This document shows, in pieces, positions 1,634 to 15,138 of a stretch of 20,000 nt of DNA (position 1 is the stretch's first letter; the number at the start of each line of letters is the position of its first letter). The notes beneath the pieces are model-generated. The model searched no databases. It had not been told where the DNA came from and saw only the letters and a list, made by a program, of their open reading frames with translations. Origin of the DNA: an uncultured virus (IMG/VR IMGVR_UViG_3300029989_000017) (Duplodnaviria; Heunggongvirae; Uroviricota; Caudoviricetes). The stretch lies in IMG/VR virus record IMGVR_UViG_3300029989_000017, one strand, 5' to 3'. The position numbers and the translations under genes are program-made.

Positions 1634-1960
1634 ATGACAAGAGAGAACATAAGCACCGAGAGACTTCAGGCCAAAGGCTACAGAGCCCCCGAGGGCCTCA
1701 CCCTTAATCATATGGTAGAGGCGACCATGCGCGGCGACACGCTCGTCCGTATCAGAAATCCGAAGGACCTGACCGTCACCATTAACGCCTACGCCGATAT
1801 GGGCGACAGTGTACCATCCGCCACAGTACAGCGCCACTTTACCGCCAAGGAGCTCACCGAGGGCGATGAGCGCAGGCGCAGAGCCTACGAAGTAGCGCGG
1901 CTCGGCAGTACAACCACCCGCAACGCTTTTAGGGCACCCGTCAGATCGGAGTGCGAATGA
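1634..1960 (+). CDS. Hypothetical early protein
   Basis: Strong RBS behind P1; 108 aa; ATGA overlap with next gene. Confidence 0.75.
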   Translation: MTRENISTERLQAKGYRAPEGLTLNHMVEATMRGDTLVRIRNPKDLTVTINAYADMGDSVPSATVQRHFTAKELTEGDERRRRAYEVARLGSTTTRNAFRAPVRSECE

Positions 1961-2187
1961 GAAATCACCTATGCCCCTTTGTGGGCTCCTGCATTCTCGA
2001 ATGCGGCACCTGCGCCTCTTGCCGCCGTCTCAATGAACGGGCGCTCCAAGAATCGCCTGAGCCGCCGCAGAGCCTCCGAGACGACGCGCTCAGGCTCCTC
2101 GCGGAACATACGCAACACTTTGTACCTGTTGCGGACCTGTGGGCCTTCAACATGGCGCTCGAGGCACTGAGAGAGGCGGACCTATGA
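1957..2187 (+). CDS. Small Cys-rich hypothetical protein
   Basis: ATGA coupling at both ends; GGAG RBS; CPFVGSCILECGTCASC. Confidence 0.65.
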   Translation: MRNHLCPFVGSCILECGTCASCRRLNERALQESPEPPQSLRDDALRLLAEHTQHFVPVADLWAFNMALEALREADL

Positions 2188-2570
2188 GATACACATTCAC
2201 ACAATTAAAGGACCTGCCTGAGACGCCCGCGGGCACGGTGTCCCGCTGTAATGGCGTCGGCAGGCGCACCGACTGGGGTGATTCGCGAAACGGCTACCCC
2301 ACTAAAGACTGCTACGAGATTGTGCTACCCGACAGGGTCGGCACGATGACCGAGCCCTTCATTGGGGAGAGCCTGTATGACAACCCTGAGTGGTTTAGGC
2401 GCGACATCGACTTTGACAGGCTCACCGACCTGAAATGTCCCGTCTGCGGGGAGACCCGAGCCAGTGTGCACGTAGACGCAAAACGCGTAGGTGACCGCGA
2501 GGACGGCTACCATAACACGGCGGACATCCTGCTCGAGTATCCCTGCGGGCACCCGTCGAGGGCTCTGTGA
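2184..2570 (+). CDS. Hypothetical protein with C-terminal Zn-ribbon-like motif
   Basis: GAGGCGG RBS, ATG overlapping upstream TGA; CPVCG...PCGH. Confidence 0.7.
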   Translation: MRYTFTQLKDLPETPAGTVSRCNGVGRRTDWGDSRNGYPTKDCYEIVLPDRVGTMTEPFIGESLYDNPEWFRRDIDFDRLTDLKCPVCGETRASVHVDAKRVGDREDGYHNTADILLEYPCGHPSRAL

Positions 2571-2806
2571 TGAAGCCGCTTATCAAGAGCCCCCACATTA
2601 AGCGCTTTTTGAAACTGGCAGAGGGTCTCGACAAGCTGATGGCGGAGGTGCGCGAGTATTGCCCCGAGGCGAGCTACTACGCGGCTGACTCCTATCTCCA
2701 CCTCATGCAGGGCCCGACGCACTCTGACGGGGCAGAGATACGCGACCTACAGGAGAACGTCGCGGCGGACTACTGCCTGCACTCTTTGGACGGAGGCGCG
2801 TGGTGA
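2567..2806 (+). CDS. Hypothetical protein
   Basis: Coupled to upstream stop; 79 aa; ends DGGAW. Confidence 0.7.
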   Translation: MMKPLIKSPHIKRFLKLAEGLDKLMAEVREYCPEASYYAADSYLHLMQGPTHSDGAEIRDLQENVAADYCLHSLDGGAW

Positions 2807-2979
2807 TGGGTGAGAAGTGCAAGACCTGCCTCGGTCGACTAGACTGGAAGACGGGAATACCCTGCCGCTATTGCAAGTACAACACCGCGCCCTACTGGGG
2901 CCGCGACGAGTCCAAGATGACGAAAGACAGCTATGTGTATGCGCCGCCGCGGCCAGTTGACAGCGACATACCGTATTAA
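2806..2979 (+). CDS. 57-aa Zn-finger microprotein with acidic ...DSDIPY tail
   Basis: Below the ORF-track cutoff. GGAGG RBS, TGATG coupling. MGEKCKTCLGRLDWKTGIPCRYCKYNTAPYWGRDESKMTKDSYVYAPPRPVDSDIPY; fills the gap exactly. Confidence 0.7.
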   Translation: MGEKCKTCLGRLDWKTGIPCRYCKYNTAPYWGRDESKMTKDSYVYAPPRPVDSDIPY

Positions 2980-2989
2980 GGAGGAAAGT

Positions 2990-3421
2990 ATGAAATGCCC
3001 CGAATGTAACAACGAGATGACCTGCAAAGAGAGGACCTCCTTCGAGGAGGCCTTCGGGCAGGCGGGCGCAGACGGATACTACGTGCCGCGCACAACTAGC
3101 ACCTATGCCTGTGCGGCCTGCAAGATACGATGCGTCGACGACGGTGACGAGCCAATATGGTCGGTGCCTAAAGCTCTGCGGCCGACGCCTGCACAGCTCG
3201 TGGTGCTCGCCAAGATGGACAACTACTACAGCGCGAACGTCCTCAGGACCGCGGTCACCAAGAAGGCCGCCTCCGCCGTCATCAACAAGAGCACCGTGAT
3301 GGCCGCCTTCGACGAGGACCGCCCGAGCGGTCGGCGCTACTGGGACCGAGACGACGGCTTCGACGACTATGGGAGTCTCATCGAGTTTGGCGACTACATG
3401 GACGGTCACGGCGACCATTAG
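2990..3421 (+). CDS. Zn-ribbon-containing hypothetical protein
   Basis: AAGGAGG RBS before ATG 2990; MKCPECNNEM...YACAACK; acidic C-terminus. Confidence 0.8.
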   Translation: MKCPECNNEMTCKERTSFEEAFGQAGADGYYVPRTTSTYACAACKIRCVDDGDEPIWSVPKALRPTPAQLVVLAKMDNYYSANVLRTAVTKKAASAVINKSTVMAAFDEDRPSGRRYWDRDDGFDDYGSLIEFGDYMDGHGDH

Positions 3422-3424
3422 GCG

Positions 3425-3515
3425 AAATGCACAAAACGATTTGTGCATTTTACCACTTGTTTTCTTTACTCAATGTAGTAAAATAGTATTATCAGATTTG
3501 AGAGGAGCACACAAC
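3425..3515 (+). promoter_or_regulatory. Repeated promoter cassette P2 (palindrome, -35/-10, RBS)
   Basis: AAATGCACAAA-ACGA-TTTGTGCATTT, TTGTTT(3457)-16 bp-TAAAAT(3479), core TTTACTCAATGTAGTAAAATAG, GAGAGGAG. Confidence 0.85.
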
Positions 3516-3761
3516 ATGAAAAAGTTTTACAAGGTAGAGGGCTCACCGAGAAGAGCCTGCGCGAGAACAACGGACAACCACGAATACCACTGGGCGATCG
3601 CATACATGATAGACGGCGTGGCCGCCTCCTCGAAGGCCTTCAGGGCCGACGAAGCAAGCGCCAACAGCGAGGCCGCTCGGATGAACAGAGACCGCGGCAA
3701 CCACTATAAGGTCCTCCCCGTGATCGAGATCACGGCCGCCGAGTACAAAGCCCTAAAATAA
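3516..3761 (+). CDS. Hypothetical early protein, first gene of the P2 module
   Basis: RBS GAGAGGAG then ATG 3516 (MKKFYKVEG...); the ORF-track extension only reads through the promoter. Confidence 0.8.
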   Translation: MKKFYKVEGSPRRACARTTDNHEYHWAIAYMIDGVAASSKAFRADEASANSEAARMNRDRGNHYKVLPVIEITAAEYKALK

Positions 3762-3814
3762 TCGAGGGCGGCCTTCGGGCCGTAAGACCACAAAAGCGGG
3801 TCCCAAGTCCCGCC
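3757..3814 (+). ncRNA. Twister-like self-cleaving ribozyme, circularly permuted (P1 closed, P5-type order), copy 1
   Basis: GAGGG(3764-68), P1 CGGCC-UUCG-GGCCG, UAA(3783-85), GACC, AC, AAAA, P4 GCGGG/CCCGC with loop UCCCAAGU. Both twister pseudoknots can form (GGG:CCC and AC:GU). P2 is weak (2 Watson-Crick pairs). Confidence 0.7.
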
Positions 3815-3837
3815 GACCTGAGAGGAGAGATCAAGTA

Positions 3838-3972
3838 ATGGACCTCGAAGAAATCCGTTATAAGCTCCGCATCCTGCGACTGCGTAACGGCGTGGACCCC
3901 GACGAGATCGCAGACATACTCGACGCCATTCTAAATTTGATTGAAGGAGACAACCATGAGACAGAACAATGA
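3838..3972 (+). CDS. 44-aa hypothetical protein
   Basis: GAGAGGAG RBS right after the ribozyme; MDLEEIRYKLRILRLRNGVDPDEIADILDAILNLIEGDNHETEQ. Confidence 0.7.
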   Translation: MDLEEIRYKLRILRLRNGVDPDEIADILDAILNLIEGDNHETEQ

Positions 3973-4111
3973 CCGAGATTTTTATGTTGTCCTCGGCGAC
4001 GAGGTCTTCATCTTTGACAGCAAGATCGAGCGCGACAACTTTCTCCTGCTGTGCGACGACACCACCGCGGCCCCCGCAAAAGACGCCTACAAAATATTGG
4101 ATAGGAGCTGA
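3956..4111 (+). CDS. 51-aa hypothetical protein
   Basis: GAAGGAGA RBS; MRQNNDRDFYVVLGDEVFIFDSKIERDNF... Confidence 0.7.
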   Translation: MRQNNDRDFYVVLGDEVFIFDSKIERDNFLLLCDDTTAAPAKDAYKILDRS

Positions 4112-4116
4112 CCGCC

Positions 4117-4455
4117 ATGGACTACACCACTGAAGCCTACGCCGCCTCTAAAATCGAGTATGCCCTCGGGCGTGCAAGCAAACCCAATCACGAGTTTTTC
4201 GGCAAGCTAATAATCGAGATGCCTTGGGGCTCACGGGCTATACCTGAGTTTACGGAGATGTTTAAACAGCTCAAGGCCCTCGGCATCACAGAGTTTTACT
4301 CTACCGACGAGTCGACGTCCCTGCTCGGACAACTCCGCATCATACAGACCCTCGGGGCCGCCTACGAGACCGTGGTGCTTGACGCTCTGCCCTCGTGGCC
4401 GGGTGCGATTCTCCGAAAGCGCCTCGCCCTGCACGTCATTTTGAAGGAGGACTAA
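4117..4455 (+). CDS. Hypothetical phage protein
   Basis: AGGAG RBS; 112 aa; operon packing. Confidence 0.8.
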   Translation: MDYTTEAYAASKIEYALGRASKPNHEFFGKLIIEMPWGSRAIPEFTEMFKQLKALGITEFYSTDESTSLLGQLRIIQTLGAAYETVVLDALPSWPGAILRKRLALHVILKED

Positions 4456-4459
4456 TATA

Positions 4460-4747
4460 ATGCCTAACAAGACGAATAACCCCTGCAACCGTCAGAACTT
4501 TACCCTCGCCATCGAGGTCCTAAAATATCACGCACCATGGAACCGCTACGCGATCGAGGACATCTACCTTGACCTCGGCGCAGGCATGAAGTGGGAGACG
4601 ATCGTCTGCTACCGCTCCGTCAACGACAGCTATCAGATGCTCTGCCCCCGGGACTGGGACATTCTCAACATCGCCGCTACCGCCTCAGAGATCACCCTGC
4701 TCATGGAGAAGATCGTCAGCGACCAAGCCAAGCTGTTGAGGTGCTAG
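4460..4747 (+). CDS. Hypothetical protein
   Basis: AAGGAGG RBS; 95 aa. Confidence 0.8.
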   Translation: MPNKTNNPCNRQNFTLAIEVLKYHAPWNRYAIEDIYLDLGAGMKWETIVCYRSVNDSYQMLCPRDWDILNIAATASEITLLMEKIVSDQAKLLRC

Positions 4748-4748
4748 A

Positions 4749-5087
4749 ATGTACATTCCGAAATACGTTGAAACCCTGCTCGAAGACAAGCGTCTGCGCC
4801 TCGCCGCAGGCGAGGAGCAGGCGGAGCACCCCGAGGCCCTTGGCTACACCTTCCGCCTGTACAGGCGCACCAACGGCGTCTACGACGGCACATTCGTGGA
4901 CGAGGCCGAGCGGCTCTGCGCGTGGGCCCGAAACAAGTATGCCGACGCCTATACAACCAAGCTCGTGTGCTTTACCGAGAAGGAACACCGCAAGCCCTAC
5001 TACAAGCGCGACTTCTGGCTCATGGTTATCACGGACCCCGTCGCGATCATACTTGAGAAGAGAATGGAGAAACATGACAAAAGTTGA
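4749..5087 (+). CDS. Hypothetical protein
   Basis: GAGGTG RBS; 112 aa; starts 1 nt after upstream stop. Confidence 0.8.
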   Translation: MYIPKYVETLLEDKRLRLAAGEEQAEHPEALGYTFRLYRRTNGVYDGTFVDEAERLCAWARNKYADAYTTKLVCFTEKEHRKPYYKRDFWLMVITDPVAIILEKRMEKHDKS

Positions 5088-5421
5088 AGAGTTTGCGGCC
5101 CTCGTGGCCGAACAGATCAAGGCCAACTACTACGCAGACGCTATTAGGCGCTCCTCGGATTATGAGACGTGGGATAAGCACATCGGCTCGAGGATTGGCA
5201 CCGAGGTCATAGTTGGCCCCAAGTACACAAAGGTCAACGTCCTCCTGCCCGACCCGAGCGCCCGCTACATGGTAGAGAATGCCACAGGCGACATCTACGG
5301 CGTCAAGAGCTATGGCAAGGTCAACAAGGCGCACTACTACGGCGACCTCAACAACACAGACGAGTATTACTGGGGCGGCTACGCCCCGACGCGTGTCATG
5401 ATAAGGTTGGTGAAGAGATGA
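5074..5421 (+). CDS. Conserved phage hypothetical protein (GxKYxKV...TGDIY motif)
   Basis: GGAG RBS before ATG 5074; GPKYTKVNV...ARYMVENATGDIYGVKSYGKVNKAHYYG resembles a widespread phage family of unknown function. Confidence 0.8.
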   Translation: MTKVEEFAALVAEQIKANYYADAIRRSSDYETWDKHIGSRIGTEVIVGPKYTKVNVLLPDPSARYMVENATGDIYGVKSYGKVNKAHYYGDLNNTDEYYWGGYAPTRVMIRLVKR

Positions 5422-5600
5422 GACTGGCCGTACGCGACAAAGAGGGCCGCATGATCGTGCTCTCACAGAAGGAGCCCTGCGGCGTGCTCACACTCACGCA
5501 GGTAGGTGCCGAGACCCTAACCCTGCCGCCCGAGGACTTAGCCGAGCTGATCAGATACTATAGATTTGTAAAAATGTATGATCTCCCGATATATCGATAA
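5418..5600 (+). CDS. 60-aa hypothetical protein
   Basis: ATGA coupling; ends just before P3. Confidence 0.65.
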   Translation: MRLAVRDKEGRMIVLSQKEPCGVLTLTQVGAETLTLPPEDLAELIRYYRFVKMYDLPIYR

Positions 5601-5606
5601 GCGCAG

Positions 5607-5696
5607 AATGCACAAAGAGATTTGTGCATTTTGTATATTGACTTATTTACTCATTGTAGTAAAATAGTATTATCAGATTCGAGAGGAGAACACACC
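5607..5696 (+). promoter_or_regulatory. Repeated promoter cassette P3
   Basis: AATGCACAAA-GAGA-TTTGTGCATT, TTGACT(5638)-16 bp-TAAAAT(5660), GAGAGGAG RBS. Confidence 0.88.
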
Positions 5697-5924
5697 ATGA
5701 ACTACGAGATTGTACACGACTGCGACGATGACGACGGCACACCGACCTGCTACAGCGCCGAGGACGCATACGGCCGCTATTGGTGGATTGACGTAGACTC
5801 GACAGGCTTCACCTGCACGACCAAGCTCGAGGGCGCGCTCTCCGCGCGGCAGACCTGTAAGACCCTGACAAGCGCTAAACGGTGGATAACTGAGAACTGC
5901 AAAAAATATAAGGATAGAGGCTAA
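5697..5924 (+). CDS. Hypothetical early protein
   Basis: ATG 5697 after cassette RBS; MNYEIVHDCDDDDGTPTCYS... Confidence 0.8.
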   Translation: MNYEIVHDCDDDDGTPTCYSAEDAYGRYWWIDVDSTGFTCTTKLEGALSARQTCKTLTSAKRWITENCKKYKDRG

Positions 5925-5928
5925 AAAT

Positions 5929-6186
5929 ATGAAAAACTTCGATAAATGGCTCGACACCCTCCTAGAGGAAAAAGGCATCGACCCTGAGAGCACCATCGCC
6001 TTCGACGGCCCGAGCGCCAAGAGCGGCACCTACAACTTCATGATGCTCGACGTCGTGGTCGAGGCCCTCAAGAACACAAGCCCCGCCGAGCAGGCGGCCG
6101 TCAAGAATATGCTCGTCAAGATAGACTTCGTTAACGGCGACGTCGTAGACTACCTCAGGCACCTCGCGGGGGCGCTCGTCCTATGA
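5929..6186 (+). CDS. Hypothetical phage protein
   Basis: AGAGG RBS; 85 aa; FDKWLDTLLEEKGID...LVKIDFVNGDVVDYLRHLA. Confidence 0.8.
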   Translation: MKNFDKWLDTLLEEKGIDPESTIAFDGPSAKSGTYNFMMLDVVVEALKNTSPAEQAAVKNMLVKIDFVNGDVVDYLRHLAGALVL

Positions 6187-6419
6187 AAAAGATTAACAAG
6201 GCCACGGCCCGTAAGCTCTACCGCGATGAAGGTGTTGAAATACACCTCCTGCCCTGCAAGGTCGGCCTCGGCAGTGTGTGGGTCCGCCCGGTCGGCATCC
6301 GCGCCGCGGGCCCTGCCGCGGAAACCTTCGATCACCGTGTCAACAGCTTCGAGTATTACAACTGCAACGCCGAGCTAGGCTACTACGCCGCGTATTACAT
6401 CAAGGAGGACACAGAATGA
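6183..6419 (+). CDS. Hypothetical phage protein
   Basis: ATGA coupling; KKINKATARKLY...VNSFEYYNCNAELGYYAAYY. Confidence 0.8.
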   Translation: MKKINKATARKLYRDEGVEIHLLPCKVGLGSVWVRPVGIRAAGPAAETFDHRVNSFEYYNCNAELGYYAAYYIKEDTE

Positions 6420-6553
6420 AAACCATCATGGCTCAGCAATACCGCTACTACGTGTTCGTGTGCGCGGGGCAGATCGCCTACTTCAATGACCGCAGGGAGG
6501 CCGAGGCCTTCGCGGCCTTCAATGACTCCGAAGTCTCCGACATGGACATCTAG
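6416..6553 (+). CDS. 45-aa hypothetical protein
   Basis: AAGGAGG RBS, ATGA overlap; MKTIMAQQYRYYVFVCAGQIAYFNDRREAEAF... Confidence 0.7.
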   Translation: MKTIMAQQYRYYVFVCAGQIAYFNDRREAEAFAAFNDSEVSDMDI

Positions 6554-6651
6554 CACAAAAATCTTTGTGCACTTTGTATATTGACTTATTTACTCAATGT
6601 AGTAAAATAGGTACTATGAGAGGGCCAAGAGCCCCGAGAAGGAGAGAACAT
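6553..6651 (+). promoter_or_regulatory. Repeated promoter cassette P4
   Basis: GCACAAA-AATC-TTTGTGC, TTGACT(6581)-16 bp-TAAAAT(6603), AAGGAG RBS. Confidence 0.88.
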
Positions 6652-6888
6652 ATGAAGCAGATCAAGACTAGCACTTTCGCAGGCGGCGACGTCTCAGAGA
6701 CCACGACCATCATCACCGAGGAGGCTTACCTAGAGATCGGGCGCAAGGCCGAACGCCTTAAAGACCACGGCGCTGAGGTCACCTTCGACACACTCGAGGA
6801 CGGTACGACCAAGATCACCCGCATACTCCACGCGATCGAAGCCACAGACAACATCACCATCGTCTACACCTTCAGCGAGGAGGAATAA
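6652..6888 (+). CDS. Hypothetical early protein, first gene of the P4 module
   Basis: ATG 6652 after RBS; 78 aa; stop overlaps the ribozyme. Confidence 0.8.
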   Translation: MKQIKTSTFAGGDVSETTTIITEEAYLEIGRKAERLKDHGAEVTFDTLEDGTTKITRILHAIEATDNITIVYTFSEEE

Positions 6889-6942
6889 TCGAGGGCGGCC
6901 CACAGGGCCGTAAGACCACAAAAGCGGGTCCCAAGTCCCGCC
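6884..6942 (+). ncRNA. Twister-like self-cleaving ribozyme, copy 2
   Basis: Identical to copy 1 except the P1 tip (CGGCCC-ACA-GGGCCG versus CGGCC-UUCG-GGCCG), so variation is confined to a non-catalytic loop. Predicted scissile U/A at 6911/6912. Confidence 0.7.
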
Positions 6943-6961
6943 ACATTGAGAGGAGATCAAC

Positions 6962-7147
6962 ATGAGACAGGTTATACACTACTGGGGCGAGTATTGGGGC
7001 GAAGACGGCGCGCGGCAGATCATGACCCCTGTGTTCATAAACAAAGCGGAGTTTGCGACGTACATGAGAGCCCACAAGGACCCCGCCATCAAGCTAATTT
7101 GGTGCCAAGATAAAACACCCGCGTTTCGCGGAAATTCAAGATTTTAA
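6962..7147 (+). CDS. 61-aa hypothetical protein
   Basis: GAGAGGAG RBS directly after the ribozyme. Confidence 0.75.
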   Translation: MRQVIHYWGEYWGEDGARQIMTPVFINKAEFATYMRAHKDPAIKLIWCQDKTPAFRGNSRF

Positions 7148-7157
7148 GGAGACCGTC

Positions 7158-7544
7158 ATGCAGAAAGAAGAGTTTGAGGCCCGCCTAGGCGTAGAGGTCA
7201 CCGGGAGCGTGTACGATAGAGTCGAGGCCCTGTATATGGCGGGACCCGACGACAAAGACACCTTCGTCACGAAGCTCAAGCGCAAGGGCACGGTCGTCGC
7301 GATACAGAATGAAATCATCCGCGAGCTCGAGAAAAAGATCGCCCGCACAGAGACCTACCTGACCGCGGCCAAGGCTCGGCACAGCGCGTCATACGAGCGC
7401 CCACAGGCCCAAGAGGCGCACCGTCGCGCAGAGGAAATCCTCGACAGCAACACCTATTACGGCAACAACCATTATCTCATGGGCCTCGAAGGGTCCGTCA
7501 CCTGCCAGTATGCGCTCGAATATTTGAGAGGAGAACAACTATGA
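7158..7544 (+). CDS. Hypothetical protein
   Basis: AAGGAG RBS; MQKEEFEARLG...YDRVEALYM...DKDTF. Confidence 0.8.
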   Translation: MQKEEFEARLGVEVTGSVYDRVEALYMAGPDDKDTFVTKLKRKGTVVAIQNEIIRELEKKIARTETYLTAAKARHSASYERPQAQEAHRRAEEILDSNTYYGNNHYLMGLEGSVTCQYALEYLRGEQL

Positions 7545-7852
7545 ACAAGATCAGACGCGCCGCCCTACAGGAGATCATCGACACCCTGACTAAACTGCGT
7601 AGCGCTCTCGACAATGGAGACGCCCTCTCCGACCTTCGCGGAGAGCTCGACAGCGTCCAAGCCGACGAGCAGGAGTCCTTCGACAATATGCCAGAGGGTA
7701 TACAGGCGAGCGAACAGGGGCAGGCATCAGAGTCCGCCGCGGAGGCCATAGAGTCCGCGTCTGGCTCTTTGGACGACGCGATGAGCTCGCTGTCTGAGGT
7801 CCTTGACTCAATCGACTCGGCTCTCGCCTCGATCGAGGAGGCGCAGGCATGA
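7541..7852 (+). CDS. Acidic helical/coiled-coil phage protein
   Basis: GAGAGGAG RBS; MNKIRRAAL...DEQESFDNMPEGIQASEQG. Confidence 0.8.
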   Translation: MNKIRRAALQEIIDTLTKLRSALDNGDALSDLRGELDSVQADEQESFDNMPEGIQASEQGQASESAAEAIESASGSLDDAMSSLSEVLDSIDSALASIEEAQA

Positions 7853-8151
7853 AGAGCAAATATTTACAGGACGTCATCTATCTGCACAAGCGTGTCCTTC
7901 CCGATGTGCCGCCAGAGCTCAAGACAATCTCCGAGGAGTGGACCAACAGGTCGAACGCGGGCCCCGACGAAGGCTCCCGTGTCCTCGGGGCGGGCTTCAT
8001 GTTCAAGTACAACAAGCAATGGTACTTCATGCCGCCCAACTGCCGCCATCAGGGCTCGGTGTCGTGGGAGCGCCACAGAGAGCCCATACACATGATGCTG
8101 TGTGGCATCGGCGCAACAGATATTCGATATGATTGGGGTGTTATGGCTTGA
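7849..8151 (+). CDS. Hypothetical protein
   Basis: GGAGG RBS; ATGA coupling; 100 aa. Confidence 0.8.
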   Translation: MKSKYLQDVIYLHKRVLPDVPPELKTISEEWTNRSNAGPDEGSRVLGAGFMFKYNKQWYFMPPNCRHQGSVSWERHREPIHMMLCGIGATDIRYDWGVMA

Positions 8152-8327
8152 GACACGTTTACCTGCCCGCCAACCAAATGCACGCGATCAGACTCGGCGA
8201 CCAAATCATCAGTATCAACGGCAAGAGCTTTTTTCAGTCCCGCGCAGAGCTCCTCGAGGCCTTGGCCGCGAAGGGCCTGACACTCAAAGACGGCGAGGTC
8301 GTCAAGAAGGAGGCAATCCATGTTTGA
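8148..8327 (+). CDS. Small hypothetical protein
   Basis: TTG start overlapping upstream TGA after GGGGTG; fills the gap; start uncertain. Confidence 0.6.
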   Translation: MRHVYLPANQMHAIRLGDQIISINGKSFFQSRAELLEALAAKGLTLKDGEVVKKEAIHV

Positions 8328-8595
8328 TTTTACAGAGGCCCGCAGTGCCTATTTTCCGCCGCGCGTCGACCGCGTCGAGTCCCTGAAGGTTGAGATCGCT
8401 GACCACTTCCCGATGATCTCACTCCGACCAAGCAACGCCGACGACACGTACACCCTCGCCGACCTCGGCGCTGTGCTTGAGGCCGCCGGGTACACTAAGG
8501 CCTTCGAGGCCGAGGAAGAGATCATCATACCGCAAGGTATGTTCAGACACGAGTGGGCGACCTACCCGAAGGGCTTTGTGGTGTACACGTTATGA
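8320..8595 (+). CDS. Hypothetical protein
   Basis: AAGGAGG RBS; 91 aa. Confidence 0.8.
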   Translation: MFDFTEARSAYFPPRVDRVESLKVEIADHFPMISLRPSNADDTYTLADLGAVLEAAGYTKAFEAEEEIIIPQGMFRHEWATYPKGFVVYTL

Positions 8596-8858
8596 GTAAA
8601 TGCCCGACACTGGCACTCGTGGGCTGTGAGGCCCTCAGAGAGCTCGCCCCAGTCATTGAATACTGCCGCCTGCTCTCTAGGCTCGTTTCTCCTGCGGATA
8701 CTCGGCGCTACGGCCTGCGCCACGACGGCGCGGTCTCTGATTTTCTCGGGGGTCTTAGCTGTGTTCTTGCGAAGGGCGAGATGCTTGACCTCGCTAACAA
8801 CGAATTTGACCGAGACCTGTATACCCGCATATGTGAGGACGTGAAGCATGAGCAGTAA
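8592..8858 (+). CDS. Hypothetical protein
   Basis: ATGA coupling at 8592; 88 aa. Confidence 0.65.
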   Translation: MSKCPTLALVGCEALRELAPVIEYCRLLSRLVSPADTRRYGLRHDGAVSDFLGGLSCVLAKGEMLDLANNEFDRDLYTRICEDVKHEQ

Positions 8859-9090
8859 GAGCGCACTTATCGTCGGCGCGGGCCTTAGTAACCTCTTGGC
8901 GGCCTCTGTGTTGTTTGCTACGGCCGCCAACCCCTACAGCTCTCAGCCCGTGCCAAAAACGCCCCTGAGCGTAGAGAGGGCCCGCTACGGCGGCCGAGTA
9001 GCCTGCCGTGTTTGTGGAGCCTGCGGCGTAACCCTGTACAAAGACGGCGACGACGCCTATATTTGCAAAAAATGTAAGGCCGAAAAATAG
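8848..9090 (+). CDS. Small protein with hydrophobic N-terminus and C-terminal CxxC/CxxC Zn finger
   Basis: GAGG RBS; ALIVGAGLSNLLAASVLFA; CRVCG...ICKKCK. Confidence 0.7.
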   Translation: MSSKSALIVGAGLSNLLAASVLFATAANPYSSQPVPKTPLSVERARYGGRVACRVCGACGVTLYKDGDDAYICKKCKAEK

Positions 9091-9096
9091 GGGGTC

Positions 9097-9316
9097 GGTA
9101 GCACTTGTCGCACTTGTCGCACTTTTTTCAACTCCCCTATACTACGTAGATACGTGTTTAGACCTGTGTTTTCCCCTTAATTCTCTATGTATGTTTTTAT
9201 ATAATAATGTGCTACCAGTGCTACCATACATAGAGGAAGGCCTGCAATCACTCAACTTTTTAGTGTCGCACTTGTGGTCGCACTTGCTAAAAAAGTGCTA
9301 CCAAGTGCGACCACAA
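9097..9316. repeat. Iteron-like repeat cluster, putative replication origin
   Basis: Nine copies of GT(C/A)GCAC(TT) in both orientations around an AT-rich tract; perfect inverted repeats 9183-9193/9225-9235 and 9272-9286/9302-9316; non-coding. Confidence 0.65.
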
Positions 9317-9341
9317 TAAAAACAGAATGGAGCTATTAAAA

Positions 9342-9545
9342 ATGGGACTCAAAGAGCTTAGACTGAAGGGTGGCTTTACCCTCCACAGCCTCGCCGACGC
9401 GTCGGGCGTCAATTTCATGAAAATTCATCAGATCGAGAAGGGTCAGCGCGATATGGAGAACATCACGCTGAAGACCTCGCTGAAACTCGCCAAGGCGCTG
9501 AAGTGTAGACCCGAGGACCTGATCGACAAGGAGCCCAAAGCGTGA
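9342..9545 (+). CDS. XRE-family HTH transcriptional regulator
   Basis: GGAG RBS before ATG 9342; LKELRLKGGFTLHSLADASGVNFMKIHQIEKGQR...TSLKLAKALKCRPEDL. Confidence 0.9.
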   Translation: MGLKELRLKGGFTLHSLADASGVNFMKIHQIEKGQRDMENITLKTSLKLAKALKCRPEDLIDKEPKA

Positions 9546-9817
9546 GGCGGGCGTTTTGGTATGCGTGGGCGCGGCTTCGCCTCCGATGGCTGTACAGAGG
9601 CGACCCGCCGAGCTACGAAGGCCCACAGAACGACAGTTGCCCGAACTGCTTCAGGAACCCGTACGACGATCAACCGTTCGAGGACGAGTTTGACAGGAGA
9701 AACCCACACCTAGGGTCCTTTAATCACAGCTATGGCTATGAGGGCGCGTACTCATGGACCGACCGTTTCAGGTGCCGACGTTGCGGGACAATATTTGAGG
9801 TTGACAACAGCGATTAA
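9542..9817 (+). CDS. Zn-ribbon hypothetical protein
   Basis: AAGGAG RBS, GTGA overlap; CPNC...FRCRRCGTIFE. Confidence 0.7.
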   Translation: MRRAFWYAWARLRLRWLYRGDPPSYEGPQNDSCPNCFRNPYDDQPFEDEFDRRNPHLGSFNHSYGYEGAYSWTDRFRCRRCGTIFEVDNSD

Positions 9818-9856
9818 TTGGCGCATACTGTCGACAACTCTCATATGTCTTCTCTC

Positions 9857-9903
9857 AACAAAGTGGCCCCTGCGGCGAAAATCCGCAGGGGCACTTTGTT
9901 TTT
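9857..9903 (+). terminator. Intrinsic terminator
   Basis: AACAAAGTG-GCCCCTGCGG / CCGCAGGGGC-ACTTTGTT stem followed by a T run. Confidence 0.75.
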
Positions 9904-9923
9904 AAACATGATAGGAGTGAATT

Positions 9924-10271
9924 ATGAACATAAACGAGAAACGCATATTAGACGGCAGGTACACCCTGCAACAGGCCACCCTAAACAAGCTATGCACCGA
10001 GCTCGGGCTCGTGGCCTTCCGCCCGAACTACCACGCGAAGACCAACGACTCCAACACGGTCCTGATCTACCGCCAAGCGGACGAAGCCTTCAATCTGACG
10101 CTCGAGCCGTGGGACTGGAAGAAGGCCAAGGACCCAGTTTTCGTCTTCGAGAACACCGACGCCAACGGGAAGTTCGACCTGAACTTCGCCAAGCGCGGGA
10201 GCATCGACCTCAAGCCTTTGGACATCGAGAGCGTGCTCAAAAAGGTCCTCAAGGCGGCAATTAAAAAGTGA
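9924..10271 (+). CDS. Hypothetical protein
   Basis: AGGAG RBS; 115 aa. Confidence 0.8.
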   Translation: MNINEKRILDGRYTLQQATLNKLCTELGLVAFRPNYHAKTNDSNTVLIYRQADEAFNLTLEPWDWKKAKDPVFVFENTDANGKFDLNFAKRGSIDLKPLDIESVLKKVLKAAIKK

Positions 10272-10278
10272 CCAAAGG

Positions 10279-10374
10279 CAAGAGGTAAAATTTGTGCATT
10301 TTACCTCTTGTATTATTTACTCAATGTAGTAAAATAGGTAGTATGAGAGACCCAATTGAGAGGAGATCACCACC
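10279..10374 (+). promoter_or_regulatory. Repeated promoter cassette P5 (variant palindrome)
   Basis: CAAGAGGTAAAAT-TTGTGC-ATTTTACCTCTTG, TTGTAT(10308)-16 bp-TAAAAT(10330), GAGAGGAG RBS. Confidence 0.85.
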
Positions 10375-10620
10375 ATGACAAAGAAAATGCAGAGCAACGG
10401 CTTCAAGTTCACAAGCCACGCCAACGGCACCATAAAGATCGACTACGAAAAATACGCCGCCACAGTCGGCGGCATCCCCTCCGCGGGAGAGTGGGTCTGG
10501 AACATGGCCCCCAACCACGACATCAGCCACATCGTGTGTGAGAAGCTCTGCGCGTGGTCAGGCATCAACATGATGGGCGAACTCATCAACGACAGGAGGC
10601 TAGAAAACGATGAAGACTAG
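10375..10620 (+). CDS. Hypothetical early protein
   Basis: ATG after cassette RBS; 81 aa. Confidence 0.8.
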   Translation: MTKKMQSNGFKFTSHANGTIKIDYEKYAATVGGIPSAGEWVWNMAPNHDISHIVCEKLCAWSGINMMGELINDRRLENDED

Positions 10621-10894
10621 ACTTGATTTACTCTGCGAGGCCTACAAACAGCTCAACTTACTCGAGGAGCACGACAGCCCCTCCGAGATCGCCCGCACTA
10701 TTGCCCAGTATAAGAAGGACCACGACCTCATCCCTTACAGCCGAATGTACATCGAGGTCGTCGACAATGCCATGTATATCAACAGCGTGTTCGTCGCCCG
10801 TATCGGCGCGAAGAAGGCCGCTTACAGCTCCAAAGAGCTTTACGAACAGGGCACCTACCACGAAAATAAATGCTTAGGGAGAGACGAGATATGA
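10610..10894 (+). CDS. Hypothetical protein
   Basis: AGGAGG RBS; 94 aa. Confidence 0.8.
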   Translation: MKTRLDLLCEAYKQLNLLEEHDSPSEIARTIAQYKKDHDLIPYSRMYIEVVDNAMYINSVFVARIGAKKAAYSSKELYEQGTYHENKCLGRDEI

Positions 10895-11115
10895 GCACAC
10901 TTAGAGAGGCCATTAAGGCCAACGGTCACGAGAACACGTTTATCACGATCATCATACTACGCGTCAAGGAAAACAAGCCCCTGATCAAGACCACCTACCA
11001 CTCGATGTATGGCCGAGAGCTCAACCCGATGCGCGCTGACGCGCCTGTGCTCTTCGAGTGCAAGCATGAATATATCGGCGGCGACTTTCTGCCCGCCTAC
11101 GGTATTCAGCTATGA
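10891..11115 (+). CDS. Hypothetical protein
   Basis: GGGAGA RBS; ATGA coupling at both ends; 74 aa. Confidence 0.7.
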   Translation: MSTLREAIKANGHENTFITIIILRVKENKPLIKTTYHSMYGRELNPMRADAPVLFECKHEYIGGDFLPAYGIQL

Positions 11116-11927
11116 TCGGCGCTATCATCGGAGACATCGTCGGCTCACGCTTCGAGTTTGACAACCACAGGAGCAAGAACTTCAAGCTGTTCGCCAAGAC
11201 CTGCTACTTCACCGACGACACGGTCATGACGCTCGCAGTCGCAAAGGCGCTCATGGCCGCCACGCGCTACGGGGCTAACATCGGCGAAGAGACCGTGAAG
11301 TGGATGCAGACGCTCGGCCGCAAGTATCCTAATCGCGGCTACGGCAGGGCGTTCAAAGAGTGGCTCCAAGCGGCAAAGCCCGAGCCCTACAACAGCTTCG
11401 GCAACGGCGCGGCCATGCGCGTCAGCCCCGCAGGAGAGGCCGCGCATGATCGTGGCGGCGCTGTTCGATTATCCGCGTCCGTAACAAAAGTCACACACGA
11501 CCACCCCGAGGGGCTGAAGGGCGCGGAGGCCGTGGCCGTGGCCATATGGCTCGCACGTTGGCGCAGTGAGACCAAGGGCCTAAGGCTGAGGCGGCGCTTC
11601 ACAAAAGAGGAGCTCCGCAAGCGGCTCAGCGAATATTATGACCTCAACTTCACCATCGACGAGATCAGGCCCACGTACAAATTCAACGAGACTTGTCAGG
11701 AGACCGTGCCGCAGGCGATCGAGGCCTTCCTCGAGTCCACATCATTCGAGGACGCCATACGTATCGCCATATCGGTCGGAGGCGACAGCGATACCCTAGC
11801 CGCGATCACAGGCTCGATCGCCGAGGCATACTACGGCGTGCGCGATGACTTCAAGGTCAAGGCCCTGTCCTATTTAGACCCCTACCTGCGCGACATCTAC
11901 TACGAATGGGAGGCGTTTGTGAAATGA
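11112..11927 (+). CDS. ADP-ribosylglycohydrolase (DraG/ARH family)
   Basis: GAIIGDIVGSRFEF, FTDDT, SFGNGAAMR, THDHPEG and GGDSDT motifs all present, including the metal-binding acidic residues. Confidence 0.95.
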   Translation: MIGAIIGDIVGSRFEFDNHRSKNFKLFAKTCYFTDDTVMTLAVAKALMAATRYGANIGEETVKWMQTLGRKYPNRGYGRAFKEWLQAAKPEPYNSFGNGAAMRVSPAGEAAHDRGGAVRLSASVTKVTHDHPEGLKGAEAVAVAIWLARWRSETKGLRLRRRFTKEELRKRLSEYYDLNFTIDEIRPTYKFNETCQETVPQAIEAFLESTSFEDAIRIAISVGGDSDTLAAITGSIAEAYYGVRDDFKVKALSYLDPYLRDIYYEWEAFVK

Positions 11928-12097
11928 AGGCTGTTATCGAATGCCCGCACTGCGCCGTACAGGTCAAGGTGCCCGTGTCTCACGAGCAGGCCCGCGAGCT
12001 CGTCAGGTGCCCGTTCTGCGGCCGCGAGTGCATCATCGACTACATCGTCACGATCAAGGTCAAGAGCACAATAAAATTCGAGGAGATGATCGTGTGA
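11924..12097 (+). CDS. 57-aa Zn-ribbon protein
   Basis: GGAGG RBS, ATGA overlap; CPHC...VRCPFCG. Confidence 0.75.
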   Translation: MKAVIECPHCAVQVKVPVSHEQARELVRCPFCGRECIIDYIVTIKVKSTIKFEEMIV

Positions 12098-12303
12098 TAC
12101 GCAAGTGTAAACACTGTGATGCCGCCGCCTACGTTCGCAAAGAGCGACAGTCACCTTCCCGGGGGCGCGGCAACGGATACTATCACCCGATACACAGTTT
12201 CTACGTGTGCTGTCCGCTCTGCTACCAGATGAGCACATGGTACAACTCCTCGCGCGCTCTAGCTATCGCGGACTGGAATAGAAAGCAAAAAATGCACAAT
12301 TAA
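12094..12303 (+). CDS. Lar-like (restriction alleviation family) Zn-binding protein
   Basis: GAGGAG RBS, GTGA overlap; CKHC...FYVCCPLC...ALAIADWNRK matches the Lar-family pattern CxxC...VxCxxC...AIxxWNxR. Confidence 0.7.
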   Translation: MIRKCKHCDAAAYVRKERQSPSRGRGNGYYHPIHSFYVCCPLCYQMSTWYNSSRALAIADWNRKQKMHN

Positions 12304-12388
12304 TTTTGTGCATTTTGCCTATTGACTTCTTTACTCAATGTAGTAAAATAGGTACTATGAGAGACCCACTACGAGAGGAGCAAACGCC
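12289..12388 (+). promoter_or_regulatory. Repeated promoter cassette P6
   Basis: AAAATGCACAA-TTAATT-TTGTGCATTTT, TTGACT(12322)-16 bp-TAAAAT(12344), GAGAGGAG RBS. Confidence 0.88.
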
Positions 12389-13216
12389 ATGAAGAAAAAA
12401 GAGTACGCGCCCTATAAAGAATACATCCGCACAGACAGGAATGGGACAAAGTATTACAACGAGCGCGTTGACTGCGGACGTTGCGGCGGAACAGGCTTTT
12501 ACGGACCGATTCAGGTTTTCAATGGTGAGTGCTTCGACTGTAATAAACGCGGATGGGTCATCGCCGAGACCAAAGAGTACACGCCTGAGCACCGCGCCAA
12601 ACTCGACGCCAAAGCCGAGGCCGCGAGAGCCAAGAAGACCGCCGAGCACCTCGCCCACATTCCCGCCGAGAACGCCGCTTTTATGTGGCGGAAGTTTGAA
12701 GGTCACGACCACATCTGCGCGATACTCGGCAAGACCTACGAGCTCAAGGACGAGCTCAAGGCCGAAGGGTGCTTTTACAGGGGTGAGTTTGACGGTTGGT
12801 GCGCCTACGAGACAAAGCGCCCCTGCGTCAAGGTCCCGGTCGACGATCTCATCGAGACGACCGACAGCGGGTGGGTCCGTCTGAGAGACGACGGCGCGGT
12901 GATCGTTCGGGCGCTCAAAGAGATCGCCGAGAAGGCACTCCGCCCCGTCAGCGAGCACGTCGGCAAGGTCGGCGAGAGAATCACCTGCGACATCGTGGTT
13001 GAGGACGTGTTCAGCTACAAGTGCAAGAGCTTCGCAGGTTACGGCATGGAGACCCGATACATCAACAAGTTTCGGACGGCCGACGGTAATATTCTCGTGT
13101 GGCAGACAAGCGCTCCCGCCGACGAGAAGGCCACAAAGATCACGGGCACGGTCAAGGCCCACGACGACTACAAAGGCGAAAAACAGACAACACTTCAGCG
13201 TTGCAAACTTGGATAA
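12389..13216 (+). CDS. Phage protein with N-terminal DnaJ-type Zn finger and probable C-terminal OB-fold
   Basis: CGRCGGTG...CFDCNKRG; C-terminal HVGKVGERI...DGNILVWQTS...ITGTVKAHDDYKGEKQTTLQRCK beta-rich domain. Confidence 0.75.
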   Translation: MKKKEYAPYKEYIRTDRNGTKYYNERVDCGRCGGTGFYGPIQVFNGECFDCNKRGWVIAETKEYTPEHRAKLDAKAEAARAKKTAEHLAHIPAENAAFMWRKFEGHDHICAILGKTYELKDELKAEGCFYRGEFDGWCAYETKRPCVKVPVDDLIETTDSGWVRLRDDGAVIVRALKEIAEKALRPVSEHVGKVGERITCDIVVEDVFSYKCKSFAGYGMETRYINKFRTADGNILVWQTSAPADEKATKITGTVKAHDDYKGEKQTTLQRCKLG

Positions 13217-13217
13217 T

Positions 13218-13255
13218 AAAAAGCCCCTCAACCAAACGGCTGAGGGGCTTTTCTT
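13218..13255. terminator. Bidirectional intrinsic terminator between convergent early and late operons
   Basis: AAAAGCCCCTCA / TGAGGGGCTTTT stem with A and T tails on either side. Confidence 0.9.
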
Positions 13256-14086
13256 CTATATTCCTTGGATTAGATTGATCTGCATGATGCTCGTGTTGAC
13301 GTGCGCGTAGGCCTCGGAGCCGTGTATGCCTGCAATGTGCCCGCCGTCGAGCATTATCGCCTTCTCGAAGCCCACAGCCTTGGCGTAGGCATTGACCTGA
13401 GGACCCGACATACTGCGGCAGAGAACCAAGTAAAACAGCCCCGCCTTGTAGCCAATCACGGAGTGGTCGGTCGTCCTGAGCACGTCGCTGAACGCGCCAC
13501 GGAACCCTTCGGTCGATGGGGCGTAGAGGCCGAGGAGCCCGAGGCCGCCGACGGCCCATGAGAGGTCGGGCGGGAGCTCTGAGACATTCTTCGCACGTAC
13601 GACGCCGACGACACCTGCTTTGGTCCTGTACAGCGTCGATTCAGGACAGCCCTGATCGGAGTGGCAGGCCGTCGGGCAAATAACCTTGCCGCCCGCGACG
13701 CAAATTGCAACGGGCAGGCCTTGGACCGAACCGTCGGGCATTTTAAAATACCCGAAGAAACTGCCGTTTAGGCTGTTCGCGTAGGCGCTCAAGCCTCTGC
13801 GCGGCGTTGGGACCACGAGGAGGTCGTTGGCCATGATAGCGGGCATCCCGTTGAGCTTCGTCGTCCTAGGGAGCGTCGAGGAGGGCGCAGGTGCAAGGAG
13901 CGCCCACGTCATCGGCCCAACGATGCCATCAGGAGTTAGCCCATTGGCGCTTTGAAAAGCCTTGACCTCTAGGAGCGTGTGGGGCCCAAAAGCCCCGTCA
14001 GGGGAGCAGGCGAAGCCGTGAGCCGTGAGCCGGGTCTGTAGGACCACGACGTCAGCGCCCGAGGACCCTAAGCGTAGTGTGGTCAT
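13256..14086 (-). CDS. Peptidoglycan-binding domain plus phosphodiester glycosidase (NAGPA-like) protein
   Basis: ATG 14086 overlaps upstream TGA. TLRLGSSGADVVVLQTRL...DGAFGPHT...VKAFQSANGLTPDGIVGPMTW (PG_binding_1); LNGSFF, AVGGLGLL, HSVIGY, AIMLDGG (phosphodiester glycosidase family). Confidence 0.8.
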   Translation of the reverse strand: MTTLRLGSSGADVVVLQTRLTAHGFACSPDGAFGPHTLLEVKAFQSANGLTPDGIVGPMTWALLAPAPSSTLPRTTKLNGMPAIMANDLLVVPTPRRGLSAYANSLNGSFFGYFKMPDGSVQGLPVAICVAGGKVICPTACHSDQGCPESTLYRTKAGVVGVVRAKNVSELPPDLSWAVGGLGLLGLYAPSTEGFRGAFSDVLRTTDHSVIGYKAGLFYLVLCRSMSGPQVNAYAKAVGFEKAIMLDGGHIAGIHGSEAYAHVNTSIMQINLIQGI

Positions 14087-14523
14087 ACGAATGTACCGAC
14101 CCCGATCTCGGGGCCCGTCGGTGTTTTGTGTTTCCAACGTGTGCGGACAGCTCTGACGTCGATGTGGGTAAATCCGCCCACGTAAGCGTACAGGCCGATG
14201 CCGCCGCTCGTGTGCATCAGCGTCTCAGCGTAGACGGCGACAGCGAGAGGCGTGACGCCTGCGATCGTGATGTCGGCCGCGGTGCCTTGGCAATGCTGAG
14301 AGCCGTCTGTGGAGCCCTGCTTGGCGTTGTACGACTGATTTCTGTAGCCGCTGTTTACGGTCACGGGCTTGCCAAAGTGGGCCCTGATCTTCTCGAGGAC
14401 CGCGACGAGCTCATCAGAGACGAGGAGCGCCCCTGAGTCGTCGTGGCACTGAAATTCTTTTACTGTAAAATGACTGCTGAGCTTCAGCTCGGCGTCAGTA
14501 TATGCGTTGTAACTTTTTACCAT
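14083..14523 (-). CDS. Endolysin, peptidase M15A family
   Basis: HFTVKEFQCHD, LEKIRAHFGKPVTVNSGYR, SQHCQGTAADI, GGIGLY, FTHIDVR; AAAGGA RBS. Confidence 0.92.
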   Translation of the reverse strand: MVKSYNAYTDAELKLSSHFTVKEFQCHDDSGALLVSDELVAVLEKIRAHFGKPVTVNSGYRNQSYNAKQGSTDGSQHCQGTAADITIAGVTPLAVAVYAETLMHTSGGIGLYAYVGGFTHIDVRAVRTRWKHKTPTGPEIGVGTFV

Positions 14524-14616
14524 TGTGTTCCTTTCGTACAGGGAGGCCGAGGCTCGGTAGATGGCACGACCGAGCGCTCAGGCCTCTATCTCAAAGCGCC
14601 GAGCGCTGTTGAGGGC

Positions 14617-14814
14617 TTAGAACTTCGTGCTGTCCGTGGGGTTATTAAGCACCCCGACGAGGGTAAGTATTTCGAGGACTCCTGTGGCTACACCCTGAAA
14701 GACATCGCTTGTGATGCCAAGGGTGGCCCATCCGCCTGCAAGACCGATTATTGCCACGACCTGCGCGATGACTGCGGCCCACATCACGGGGCTTTTAAAT
14801 CTGTTCTGGTTCAT
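14617..14814 (-). CDS. Phage holin
   Basis: GAAGGAG RBS; QNRFKSPVMW..., two hydrophobic segments, GVLNNPT motif; upstream of the endolysin. Confidence 0.88.
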   Translation of the reverse strand: MNQNRFKSPVMWAAVIAQVVAIIGLAGGWATLGITSDVFQGVATGVLEILTLVGVLNNPTDSTKF

Positions 14815-15134
14815 ATTTCTCCTTCTGGCCATTCGGCTATATCTGATTCAAGCACTTCGATTGTGCCCGTGGAAACATTGCTTTTATGATTGGCGTCATC
14901 TACGACGCCGACTGTGAAGGACCACACACCACGAGGGCTCGCCGCTGTGTCTGCGCGGTCGAGCATCACGATGATCTTACCGCTGACGACGGAGGGCGCC
15001 TTCGTGATCTTGGCCGTGCCGTACTTCATCACAAAGATGAGCTGTGCGTCGGTCAGGTCCTTCGGAGCCCCGGCTTCGGTGACGGCTATACCGAGGGACA
15101 GGTCCGTGCCCGCGGGCATTGTAAAAGCATTCAT
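14811..15134 (-). CDS. BppU-N-like (Ig-fold) virion accessory protein
   Basis: GAGGTG RBS; G-TDLSLGIAV...DLTDAQLIF...GKIIVMLDRADT...GVWSF...GTIEV pattern. Confidence 0.6.
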   Translation of the reverse strand: MNAFTMPAGTDLSLGIAVTEAGAPKDLTDAQLIFVMKYGTAKITKAPSVVSGKIIVMLDRADTAASPRGVWSFTVGVVDDANHKSNVSTGTIEVLESDIAEWPEGEI

Positions 15135-15138
15135 TCGA

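Follow-up and report, generated by a model that had tools for sequence, protein, structure and literature searches.

Results and Discussion

How does a single phage genome come to hold repeated promoter cassettes whose left and right halves occur in every combination? The question is raised by a 20,000-nucleotide stretch (the window) of the uncultured caudoviricete virus IMGVR_UViG_3300029989_000017, in which a cassette of about 95 bases is present in five near-copies, P2 to P6. Each is ordered as hairpin, -35 element, palindromic core (TTTACT-N6-AGTAAA), -10 element, leader, and ribosome site. The window covers positions 44361-64360 of a single contig of 64,360 bases; because the contig ends overlap by 127 bases, we consider the genome complete and circular. 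According to sample records it was found in peat metagenomes, and we refer to it as the peat phage.

A sequence-only reading had proposed that crossovers within a conserved 22-bp core of the cassettes swapped their modules reciprocally. Here statistics uphold exchange between cassette copies, as do cases among strains of a related group of phages, but neither its placement in the core nor its reciprocity is upheld. We hold with high confidence that the mosaic is recombinational in origin, all recombination histories taken together. With less assurance, we think it probable that P2 to P6 are paralogous early-gene cassettes whose conflict came from one ordinary homologous exchange between two copies.

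Conflicting halves in five promoter cassettes

The cassettes align without gaps from about position -45 through the end of the 22-bp core, which starts at 3465 (P2), 5646 (P3), 6589 (P4), 10316 (P5), and 12330 (P6). They are listed below with a sixth promoter, P1.

P2 (A-X), 3416 to 3518, plus strand: hairpin at about 3421-3454 (z = -4.9); by pattern, a promoter with variable block 3452-3464, non-consensus -35 TTGTTT, palindrome 3465-3482, and -10 TAAAAT 3479-3484; X leader; ribosome site 3500-3507; ATG at 3516
P3 (B-X), 5601 to 5699, plus strand: hairpin (z = -5.1); block 5633-5645; TTGACT 5638-5643; palindrome 5646-5663; ATG at 5697
P4 (B-Y), 6551 to 6654, plus strand: TTGACT 6581-6586; palindrome 6589-6606; longer Y leader; ATG at 6652
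P5 (A-Y), 10278 to 10377, plus strand: stem 10278-10311 (hairpin z = -5.1); palindrome 10316-10333; ATG at 10375
P6 (B'-Y), 12289 to 12391, plus strand: hairpin (z = -4.3); TTGACT 12322-12327; palindrome 12330-12347; ATG at 12389
P1, 1547 to 1636, plus strand: diverged promoter, the first in the early region, with TTGACG-17-TAATAT; palindrome 1573-1590, one mismatch

Alignment bore out the types that had been described by eye: upstream type A in P2 and P5 and type B in P3 and P4, with a related form in P6; downstream type X in P2 and P3 and type Y in P4, P5, and P6. All four combinations (A-X, B-X, B-Y, and A-Y) are present. Six characters on the left and four on the right were informative, the right halves having been registered by hand. 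On the left, sites -13, -9, and -5 join P2 with P5, sites -12 and -11 join P3 with P4, and site -1 joins P2 with P6; on the right, a 1-base indel, two substitutions, and a 6-base indel all join P2 with P3. The incongruence length difference (ILD) between left and right was 4 across the five cassettes (exact permutation P = 1/210), and a test of the pairwise homoplasy index (PHI) kind, which uses no chosen breakpoint, also pointed to recombination (P = 0.044, 0.025, and 0.006 for spans of 1, 2, and 3 neighbours). Compared pairwise, P2 and P3 differ at 8 of 13 positions just left of the core versus 3 of 34 to its right (Fisher P = 4.7e-4), and P3 and P4 are identical throughout the 13-bp block left of the core (13/13). 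The left-hand signal lies entirely within -13 to -1, between conserved stretches of 12 and 22 bp.

The remaining anatomy bears on how these sites may have evolved. Three cassettes (P3, P4, and P6) carry the sigma-70-type pattern TTGACT-16-TAAAAT, its spacer filled by the palindrome, and P2 and P5 have TTGT at -35. A stem-loop lies directly upstream of the promoter, with z from -4.3 to -5.1 in four of the five; that of P4 is short, begins at the upstream stop codon, and reaches z = -1.8, and P1 has no significant hairpin (z = -0.1). Only P4 and P5 passed the coding-strand terminator pattern, and arms of the P4 and P6 hairpins overlap coding sequence. In P5, the 5' arm differs from the other four and pairs without a mismatch to the cassette's A block as far as the TTG of the -35. 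An inverted copy of the -35 region has here replaced the arm entirely, likely by a local template switch, which suggests that it is the shape of the hairpin that is kept and not its sequence.

Could the conflict have arisen by duplication and convergence, with no exchange, selection on promoter strength and hairpin pairing having made the same changes twice? Selection probably does act on the -35 hexamer and the base of the hairpin, where the informative left sites fall, and the P5 arm is a case of local multi-base rewriting. However, convergence needs at least four extra parallel changes, or an X leader with two indels that arose twice. Clonal evolution was simulated under 16 settings, some with two-state characters or with left sites evolving three times as fast, and an ILD of at least 4 was reached in 0-21 of 4,000 runs per setting. 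We regard this history as very unlikely.

A chimeric assembly at the repeats would be a further source of false mosaics. The genome is a metagenome assembly, and contigs do break at a 34-bp stretch common to P4 and P6, but the longest exact match among P2, P3, and P5 is 25 bp. At the cassettes, the contigs of eight peat runs had neither joints nor differing bases, and in several runs single contigs spanned P2, P3, and P5. Two Joint Genome Institute (JGI) contigs, possibly from those samples, cover P2-P4 and P3-P6 and match the window at 100% identity. On these grounds the mosaic is not a misassembly, and we give that explanation almost no credence.

Exchange in related phages

The gene behind P6 was used to fetch 78 viral loci, of which L089 alone encodes a homologue (63% identity) of the Cro-like helix-turn-helix (HTH) protein of the window. 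Its cassettes have the same palindrome geometry, followed by TAAAAT. A scan with the L089 motif returned 19 contigs, 18 of which belong to one gut-phage group with five cassette slots, c1 to c5; the other is more distant.

In this group, exchange can be followed between strains. The c4 table comprises 11 copies (that of L108 was left out), of which seven are pure c4 over the diagnostic sites and run into the c4 gene, and L103 has one switched site. L100 has the c4 state at the first 6 diagnostic sites and the c2/c5 state at 6 of the last 7, and L124 has the c2/c5 state at the last 3; these are conversion tracts of 6 and 3 diagnostic sites. Linked tracts of this kind are impossible by site-by-site convergence. 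L222 holds a hybrid cassette, c4 up to the ribosome site and c5 beyond, and its 20-kb locus is without the 189-aa gene that sits between c4 and c5 in the other ten. Behind c5, seven of 12 contigs carry a homologue of the P6 gene and five a different gene; the alignment there breaks off at the ribosome site and picks up again some 890 bases later. Three alternative segments lie between c2 and c3. Minor alleles matched a paralogous slot in 15 of 28 cases versus 9.0 expected (P = 6e-4), in a count made with the c4 copy of L100 misplaced. An ILD test on slot consensuses gave P = 0.0009, with a longer left window chosen after a null result of the fixed test described below.

The crossover position is not fixed in these relatives: there are three different switch zones, at -37 to -28, at -15 to -11, and at the ribosome site, with none in the palindrome centre. 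Such scattered switch points argue for general homologous recombination. They also bear on the proposal of repeated reciprocal crossovers limited to the 22-bp core, possibly made by a dedicated site-specific enzyme that recognises the palindrome. That all four combinations are present, that the conflict boundary spans the core, and that the core is a 6-N6-6 inverted repeat would all fit such a history. Yet one event is enough to explain the mosaic, and in the relatives the switches lie either to the left of the operator or at the ribosome site. The complete phage genome has no tyrosine or serine recombinase: a search of the phage genes for integrase or resolvase (PF00589 and PF00239) gave zero matches, with controls positive in 14/14 and 12/14. 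An enzyme supplied by the host could in principle still act. Even in the window, a short patch in the 13-bp block fits as well as a swap of halves, so crossovers need not have been confined to the core. We judge the core-limited history highly improbable.

As a side observation, four further loci (L067 at 8728-16573, L062, L046, and L064) carry a P6-gene homologue together with repeated promoter-like leaders of their own that are unrelated to those described here.

One exchange or two patches

One exchange explains all four combinations, since omitting P2 leaves zero conflicting sites and omitting P3 leaves one; when P4, P5, or P6 is omitted, the conflict stays. Reciprocity is thus left without support: no second event is required, and P5 (A-Y) does not mirror P3 (B-X), since the P5 block departs from that of P2 at 3 of 13 bases. 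P3 is most likely the hybrid, with a P4-type left block and a P2-type right half, as both of its halves are about equally near their donors (2 differences from P4 in 47 positions over -25 to +21; 3 from P2 in 34 on the right). The X leader precedes two unrelated genes, behind P2 and P3, which implies a further break at the start codon. A recent tandem duplication of the P2-P4 segment was considered as the origin of P3 and ruled out, as no paralogy was found among the 37 early open reading frames (ORFs; best E = 0.039).

The hairpins give an indication of which block is old. The 5' flank of P2 is complementary to the 3' side of P6 at 18 of 20 positions (7 of 8 in the block) and to its own at 15 of 20 (4 of 8), with duplex energies of -28.0 and -17.7 kcal/mol, respectively. 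Because the P2 flank pairs better with P6, the P6 block is likely ancestral and would have belonged to a stem extending to the -35. The block common to P2 and P5 and that common to P3 and P4 would then likely both be shared derived states.

The mismatch between the P2 flank and its own A block also fits two short patch conversions, in which P2 and P3 began as a duplicate pair and each later acquired a new -35 block, P2 from a P5-like copy and P3 from P4. This would still be recombination, with flanks that were never swapped. It accords with the confinement of the left signal to -13 to -1 between conserved stretches, with the internal tracts in L100 and L124, and with P2 and P3 being the closest pair in the 5' arm and loop (6 of 20 differences). 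The arm signal is weak, however (P3 and P6 differ at 7 of 20, and the P4 and P6 arms overlap coding sequence), and two events are required where one is enough. We consider two patches an improbable history and prefer the single exchange.

A predicted operator and its Cro-like protein

The sequence-only reading missed that the core is an operator-like palindrome; this makes a functional cause of its conservation likely. The inverted repeat is perfect at P2 to P6 and at genome position 33223, with one mismatch at P1. The genome has 8 such sites, 7 of them at promoter-like places, versus 0-2 in ten shuffles. Two features are central here.

9342 to 9545, plus strand: Cro/C1-type HTH gene, 67 aa (Pfam HTH_3, E = 3e-8), the predicted palindrome binder
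Genome 33223-33240, outside the window: seventh, perfect palindrome, at a minus-strand TTGACA promoter that precedes a 308-aa gene

The 308-aa gene (genome 32262-33188; L006 2262-3240) matches phrog_6247, labelled DNA topoisomerase (E = 9e-114), and is likely in the same regulon because a perfect palindrome and a promoter lie before it.

Across lineages, at least 3 palindrome sites were present in 22 of 37 loci with a close HTH homologue (≥51% identity) versus 0 of 53 with a distant one (≤40%). These loci were fetched through the HTH gene and are related to one another; 14 of the 22 positive loci make up the motif-defining group, and the out-of-sample count is 8 of 23. This co-occurrence makes the palindrome the likely operator of the Cro-like protein encoded at 9342-9545, a prediction that we regard as the new part of the finding. 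The literature searched, which included few subscription papers and no supplements on promoter early stem-loops (PeSLs), held no description of this cassette or operator family. Close HTH homologues occur in genome bins of Dysosmobacter, Oscillibacter, other Oscillospiraceae, and Lachnospiraceae; two further bins, with the homologue on short contigs, are labelled outside Firmicutes.

Some palindrome-bearing loci (L160, L161, L162, L165, L167, and L230) show a layout of their own. The 10 bases left of the palindrome fall into a few types that recur across different phages, no TTGACA-like -35 lies at the expected distance, and in many cassettes another palindrome is found some 46 bases further upstream.

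Several points weigh against the account given so far. The window offers five copies and ten informative characters, the left/right split was picked after the data were seen, and adjacent characters may have changed jointly. P2 could be the hybrid instead of P3, since omitting P2 leaves no conflict and omitting P3 leaves one site. The strain evidence comes from an analogue group and not from the peat phage, with which that group shares only the HTH protein (61-65% identity), two other early genes (27-33%), and palindrome geometry. In the relatives, the fixed left/right test was significant in one of three loci (L161, P = 0.022; L135, P = 0.57; L160, P = 0.62, with one false cassette included), L162 having no informative right site, and the excess of minor alleles could equally consist of retained ancestral states, from which it is inseparable. 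The co-occurrence of HTH gene and palindrome could reflect shared descent without binding.

For the peat phage itself, no strain variant, joint, or circle was found in the eight runs and four other contigs. Chimeric cassette joints were absent from the assembled contigs of the eight peat runs; as contigs drop rare forms, this is no evidence that such joints do not exist. Viral scans with the core, a looser core, the ribozyme pattern, and the P6 gene, together with a metagenome scan, returned only near-identical contigs or unrelated single matches (L009-L011). Among GenBank phages, there was no relative of positions 3400-7000 (8 records, ≤4% covered).

Genome setting and a second repeated linker

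The peat phage is a complete, 64-kb, Firmicutes-type phage. For its terminase and primase, the closest named relatives are Bacillus, Streptococcus, and Clostridium phages or unassigned gut phages, all at <60% identity. By profile matches it encodes a VapE-type primase, PolA, an SNF2 helicase, a DUF2800 exonuclease, and a Gp2.5-like single-stranded DNA (ssDNA)-binding and annealing protein. No RNA sample is among the records listed for it. The features that frame the cassettes are the following.

1634 to 13216, plus strand: presumed early region, 37 mostly small ORFs on a single strand
1 to 637, minus strand: 5' part of the DUF2800 exonuclease gene (phrog_69, E = 6e-118)
Genome 42636-43190, outside the window and two genes beyond the exonuclease: Gp2.5-like ssDNA-binding and annealing protein (phrog_112, E = 4e-57)
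3761 to 3827, plus strand: twister-P5-like RNA motif 1 (Rfam RF02684, E = 6e-4, 34.5 bits; repeat D8)
6888 to 6955, plus strand: twister-P5-like RNA motif 2 (Rfam RF02684, E = 1e-3, 33.7 bits)

Each cassette ends in a ribosome site and the start codon of a small gene (5/5), and 27 of 36 scanned early ORFs are without a PHROG match at E 0.01. Nine copies of the ribosome site GAGAGGAG are present across the genome, and seven of these sit in leaders of the early region (3500, 3820, 5681, 6948, 7526, 10358, and 12373). The twister-P5-like motifs, which themselves span 3761-3812 and 6888-6940, each begin at a stop codon, that of the gene directly behind P2 or P4, and are followed by a ribosome site; both fall below the RF02684 gathering score of 37.6 bits, at full model length. 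Motif and ribosome site together look like a second repeated linker. The pattern had no match in other viral contigs in the viral scan, and neither genome 1-46000 nor three relative loci gave an Rfam match that reached the gathering score. The string ATTGAGAGGAGATCA, previously singled out as shared by the P5 leader and the leader behind motif 2, is indeed common to the two. The common ribosome site accounts for 8 of its 15 bases, however, and with about 0.26 such pairs expected among 7 sites the match is within chance.

Several other features were noticed along the genome. A 219-bp non-coding element is present in two copies (window 9095-9312 and genome 29158-29375; 86% identical, both in reads), with short direct and inverted repeats that flank an AT-rich middle in an origin-like arrangement; one copy adjoins VRR-NUC/helicase genes and the other directly precedes the HTH gene. 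The small gene at 12094-12303, whose last codons form the 5' arm of the P6 hairpin, weakly matches Lar-like restriction alleviation proteins (E = 2.5e-5). The early region also includes an ADP-ribosylglycohydrolase gene (window 11112-11927), and a 995-aa head-region protein (genome 17782-20769) has a Nudix-like start and an ADP-ribosyltransferase-like end; the two are a possible writer/eraser pair. A tail-region protein gene at window 15139-16845 is made of about 14 copies of a 60-bp (20-aa) repeat.

Proposed mechanism and its meaning

We propose that the Cro-like protein would act on the palindrome operator to shut off all early promoters together. Selection by repressor and RNA polymerase on operator, -10, and hairpin would keep islands of identity of 12-34 bp among the cassettes. 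At these islands, DNA could be exchanged by the exonuclease and the Gp2.5-like annealing protein, a candidate recombination pair from their profile matches, or by host RecA, during replication or co-infection and wherever identity permits. The outcomes would be retuned promoters (TTGAC in P3, P4, and P6; TTGT in P2 and P5) and small genes between cassettes that are gained, lost, or replaced, with a second break at the start codon accompanying the exchange.

As a broader and rather doubtful extension, a widespread family of Clostridia phages may share one operator-repressor pair, the operator serving as a universal plug, the block of about 13 bp upstream of it as an exchangeable dial of promoter strength, and the ribozyme and ribosome-site units as a second tier of linkers. 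If true, early-gene modules would pass from one phage to another, otherwise unrelated one with their wiring to the resident repressor in place, and the ribozyme-containing linkers would cut long early transcripts. Some 20 related contigs are public, one of them a prophage from a Dysosmobacter genome bin, and they make patch conversion, hybrid cassettes, and gene replacement directly readable. The linker model of phage module exchange thus becomes testable in gut and peat Clostridia phages, and a candidate repressor-operator pair is available for Clostridia hosts.

Comparison with known systems

The proposed route resembles relaxed recombination by phage annealing proteins in being exchange driven by homology, with an exonuclease and a phi12-type Gp2.5-like protein in the peat genome. 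Annealing in vivo has been shown for the Gp2.5-like protein of phage phi12 (PMC2896510). Exchange that tolerates divergence has been demonstrated for Rad52-like annealing enzymes (De Paepe et al. 2014, PMC3945230), and the tolerance of Gp2.5 is left open by Lopes et al. 2010 (PMC2896510). The tolerance thus comes from the Rad52-like class and not the Gp2.5 class, and use of the 12-34-bp islands is our inference.

The idea of linkers is older. In the Botstein/Campbell view, as related in the accessible part of one paper, conserved flanks let alternative gene modules swap in place under the right control (PMC2839356). The swaps behind c5 and between c2 and c3 are alike in this respect, but the linkers here are paralogous within one genome and exchange parts mutually. 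Lambda Cro/CI and the mycobacteriophage stoperators provide the precedent of one repressor with many dispersed sites over early promoters; the site here differs in being a symmetric palindrome inside the promoter spacer. Because the peat phage genome is without an integrase, early-gene shut-off is a likelier role than lysogeny.

The closest parallel is the PeSL cassettes of T4-type phages, in which, as far as the available text goes, a stem-loop, promoter, and ribosome site precede ORFans, and copies recombine at several places to give chimeric cassettes, mini-circles, and gene loss or replacement (Arbiol et al. 2010, PMC2839356; Comeau et al. 2014, PMC4122927). Mini-circles and promoter/terminator activity have been demonstrated for PeSLs (PMC2839356; PMC4122927). 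Shared with what could be consulted of that system are an intergenic repeat of about 100 bp, a stem-loop, a ribosome site, a start codon, and small genes of unknown function in variable regions; a promoter pattern of the sigma-70 type is seen in three of the five cassettes. Gene loss and replacement via copy recombination were seen in the related gut-phage group. The differences are the 64-kb Firmicutes-type phage instead of a T4-type one, an unrelated surrounding context, five full copies versus about 50 by the accessible account, AT-rich stems that run into the -35, and a 16-bp spacer that holds a palindrome tracking a Cro-like protein across lineages, the available text of the PeSL papers mentioning no operator. 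By analogy, P2 to P6 appear to work like PeSL cassettes without being members in the strict sense. The mosaic itself repeats what PeSLs already show; what is added is a likely reason why the repeats stay alike, namely a repressor site under selection.

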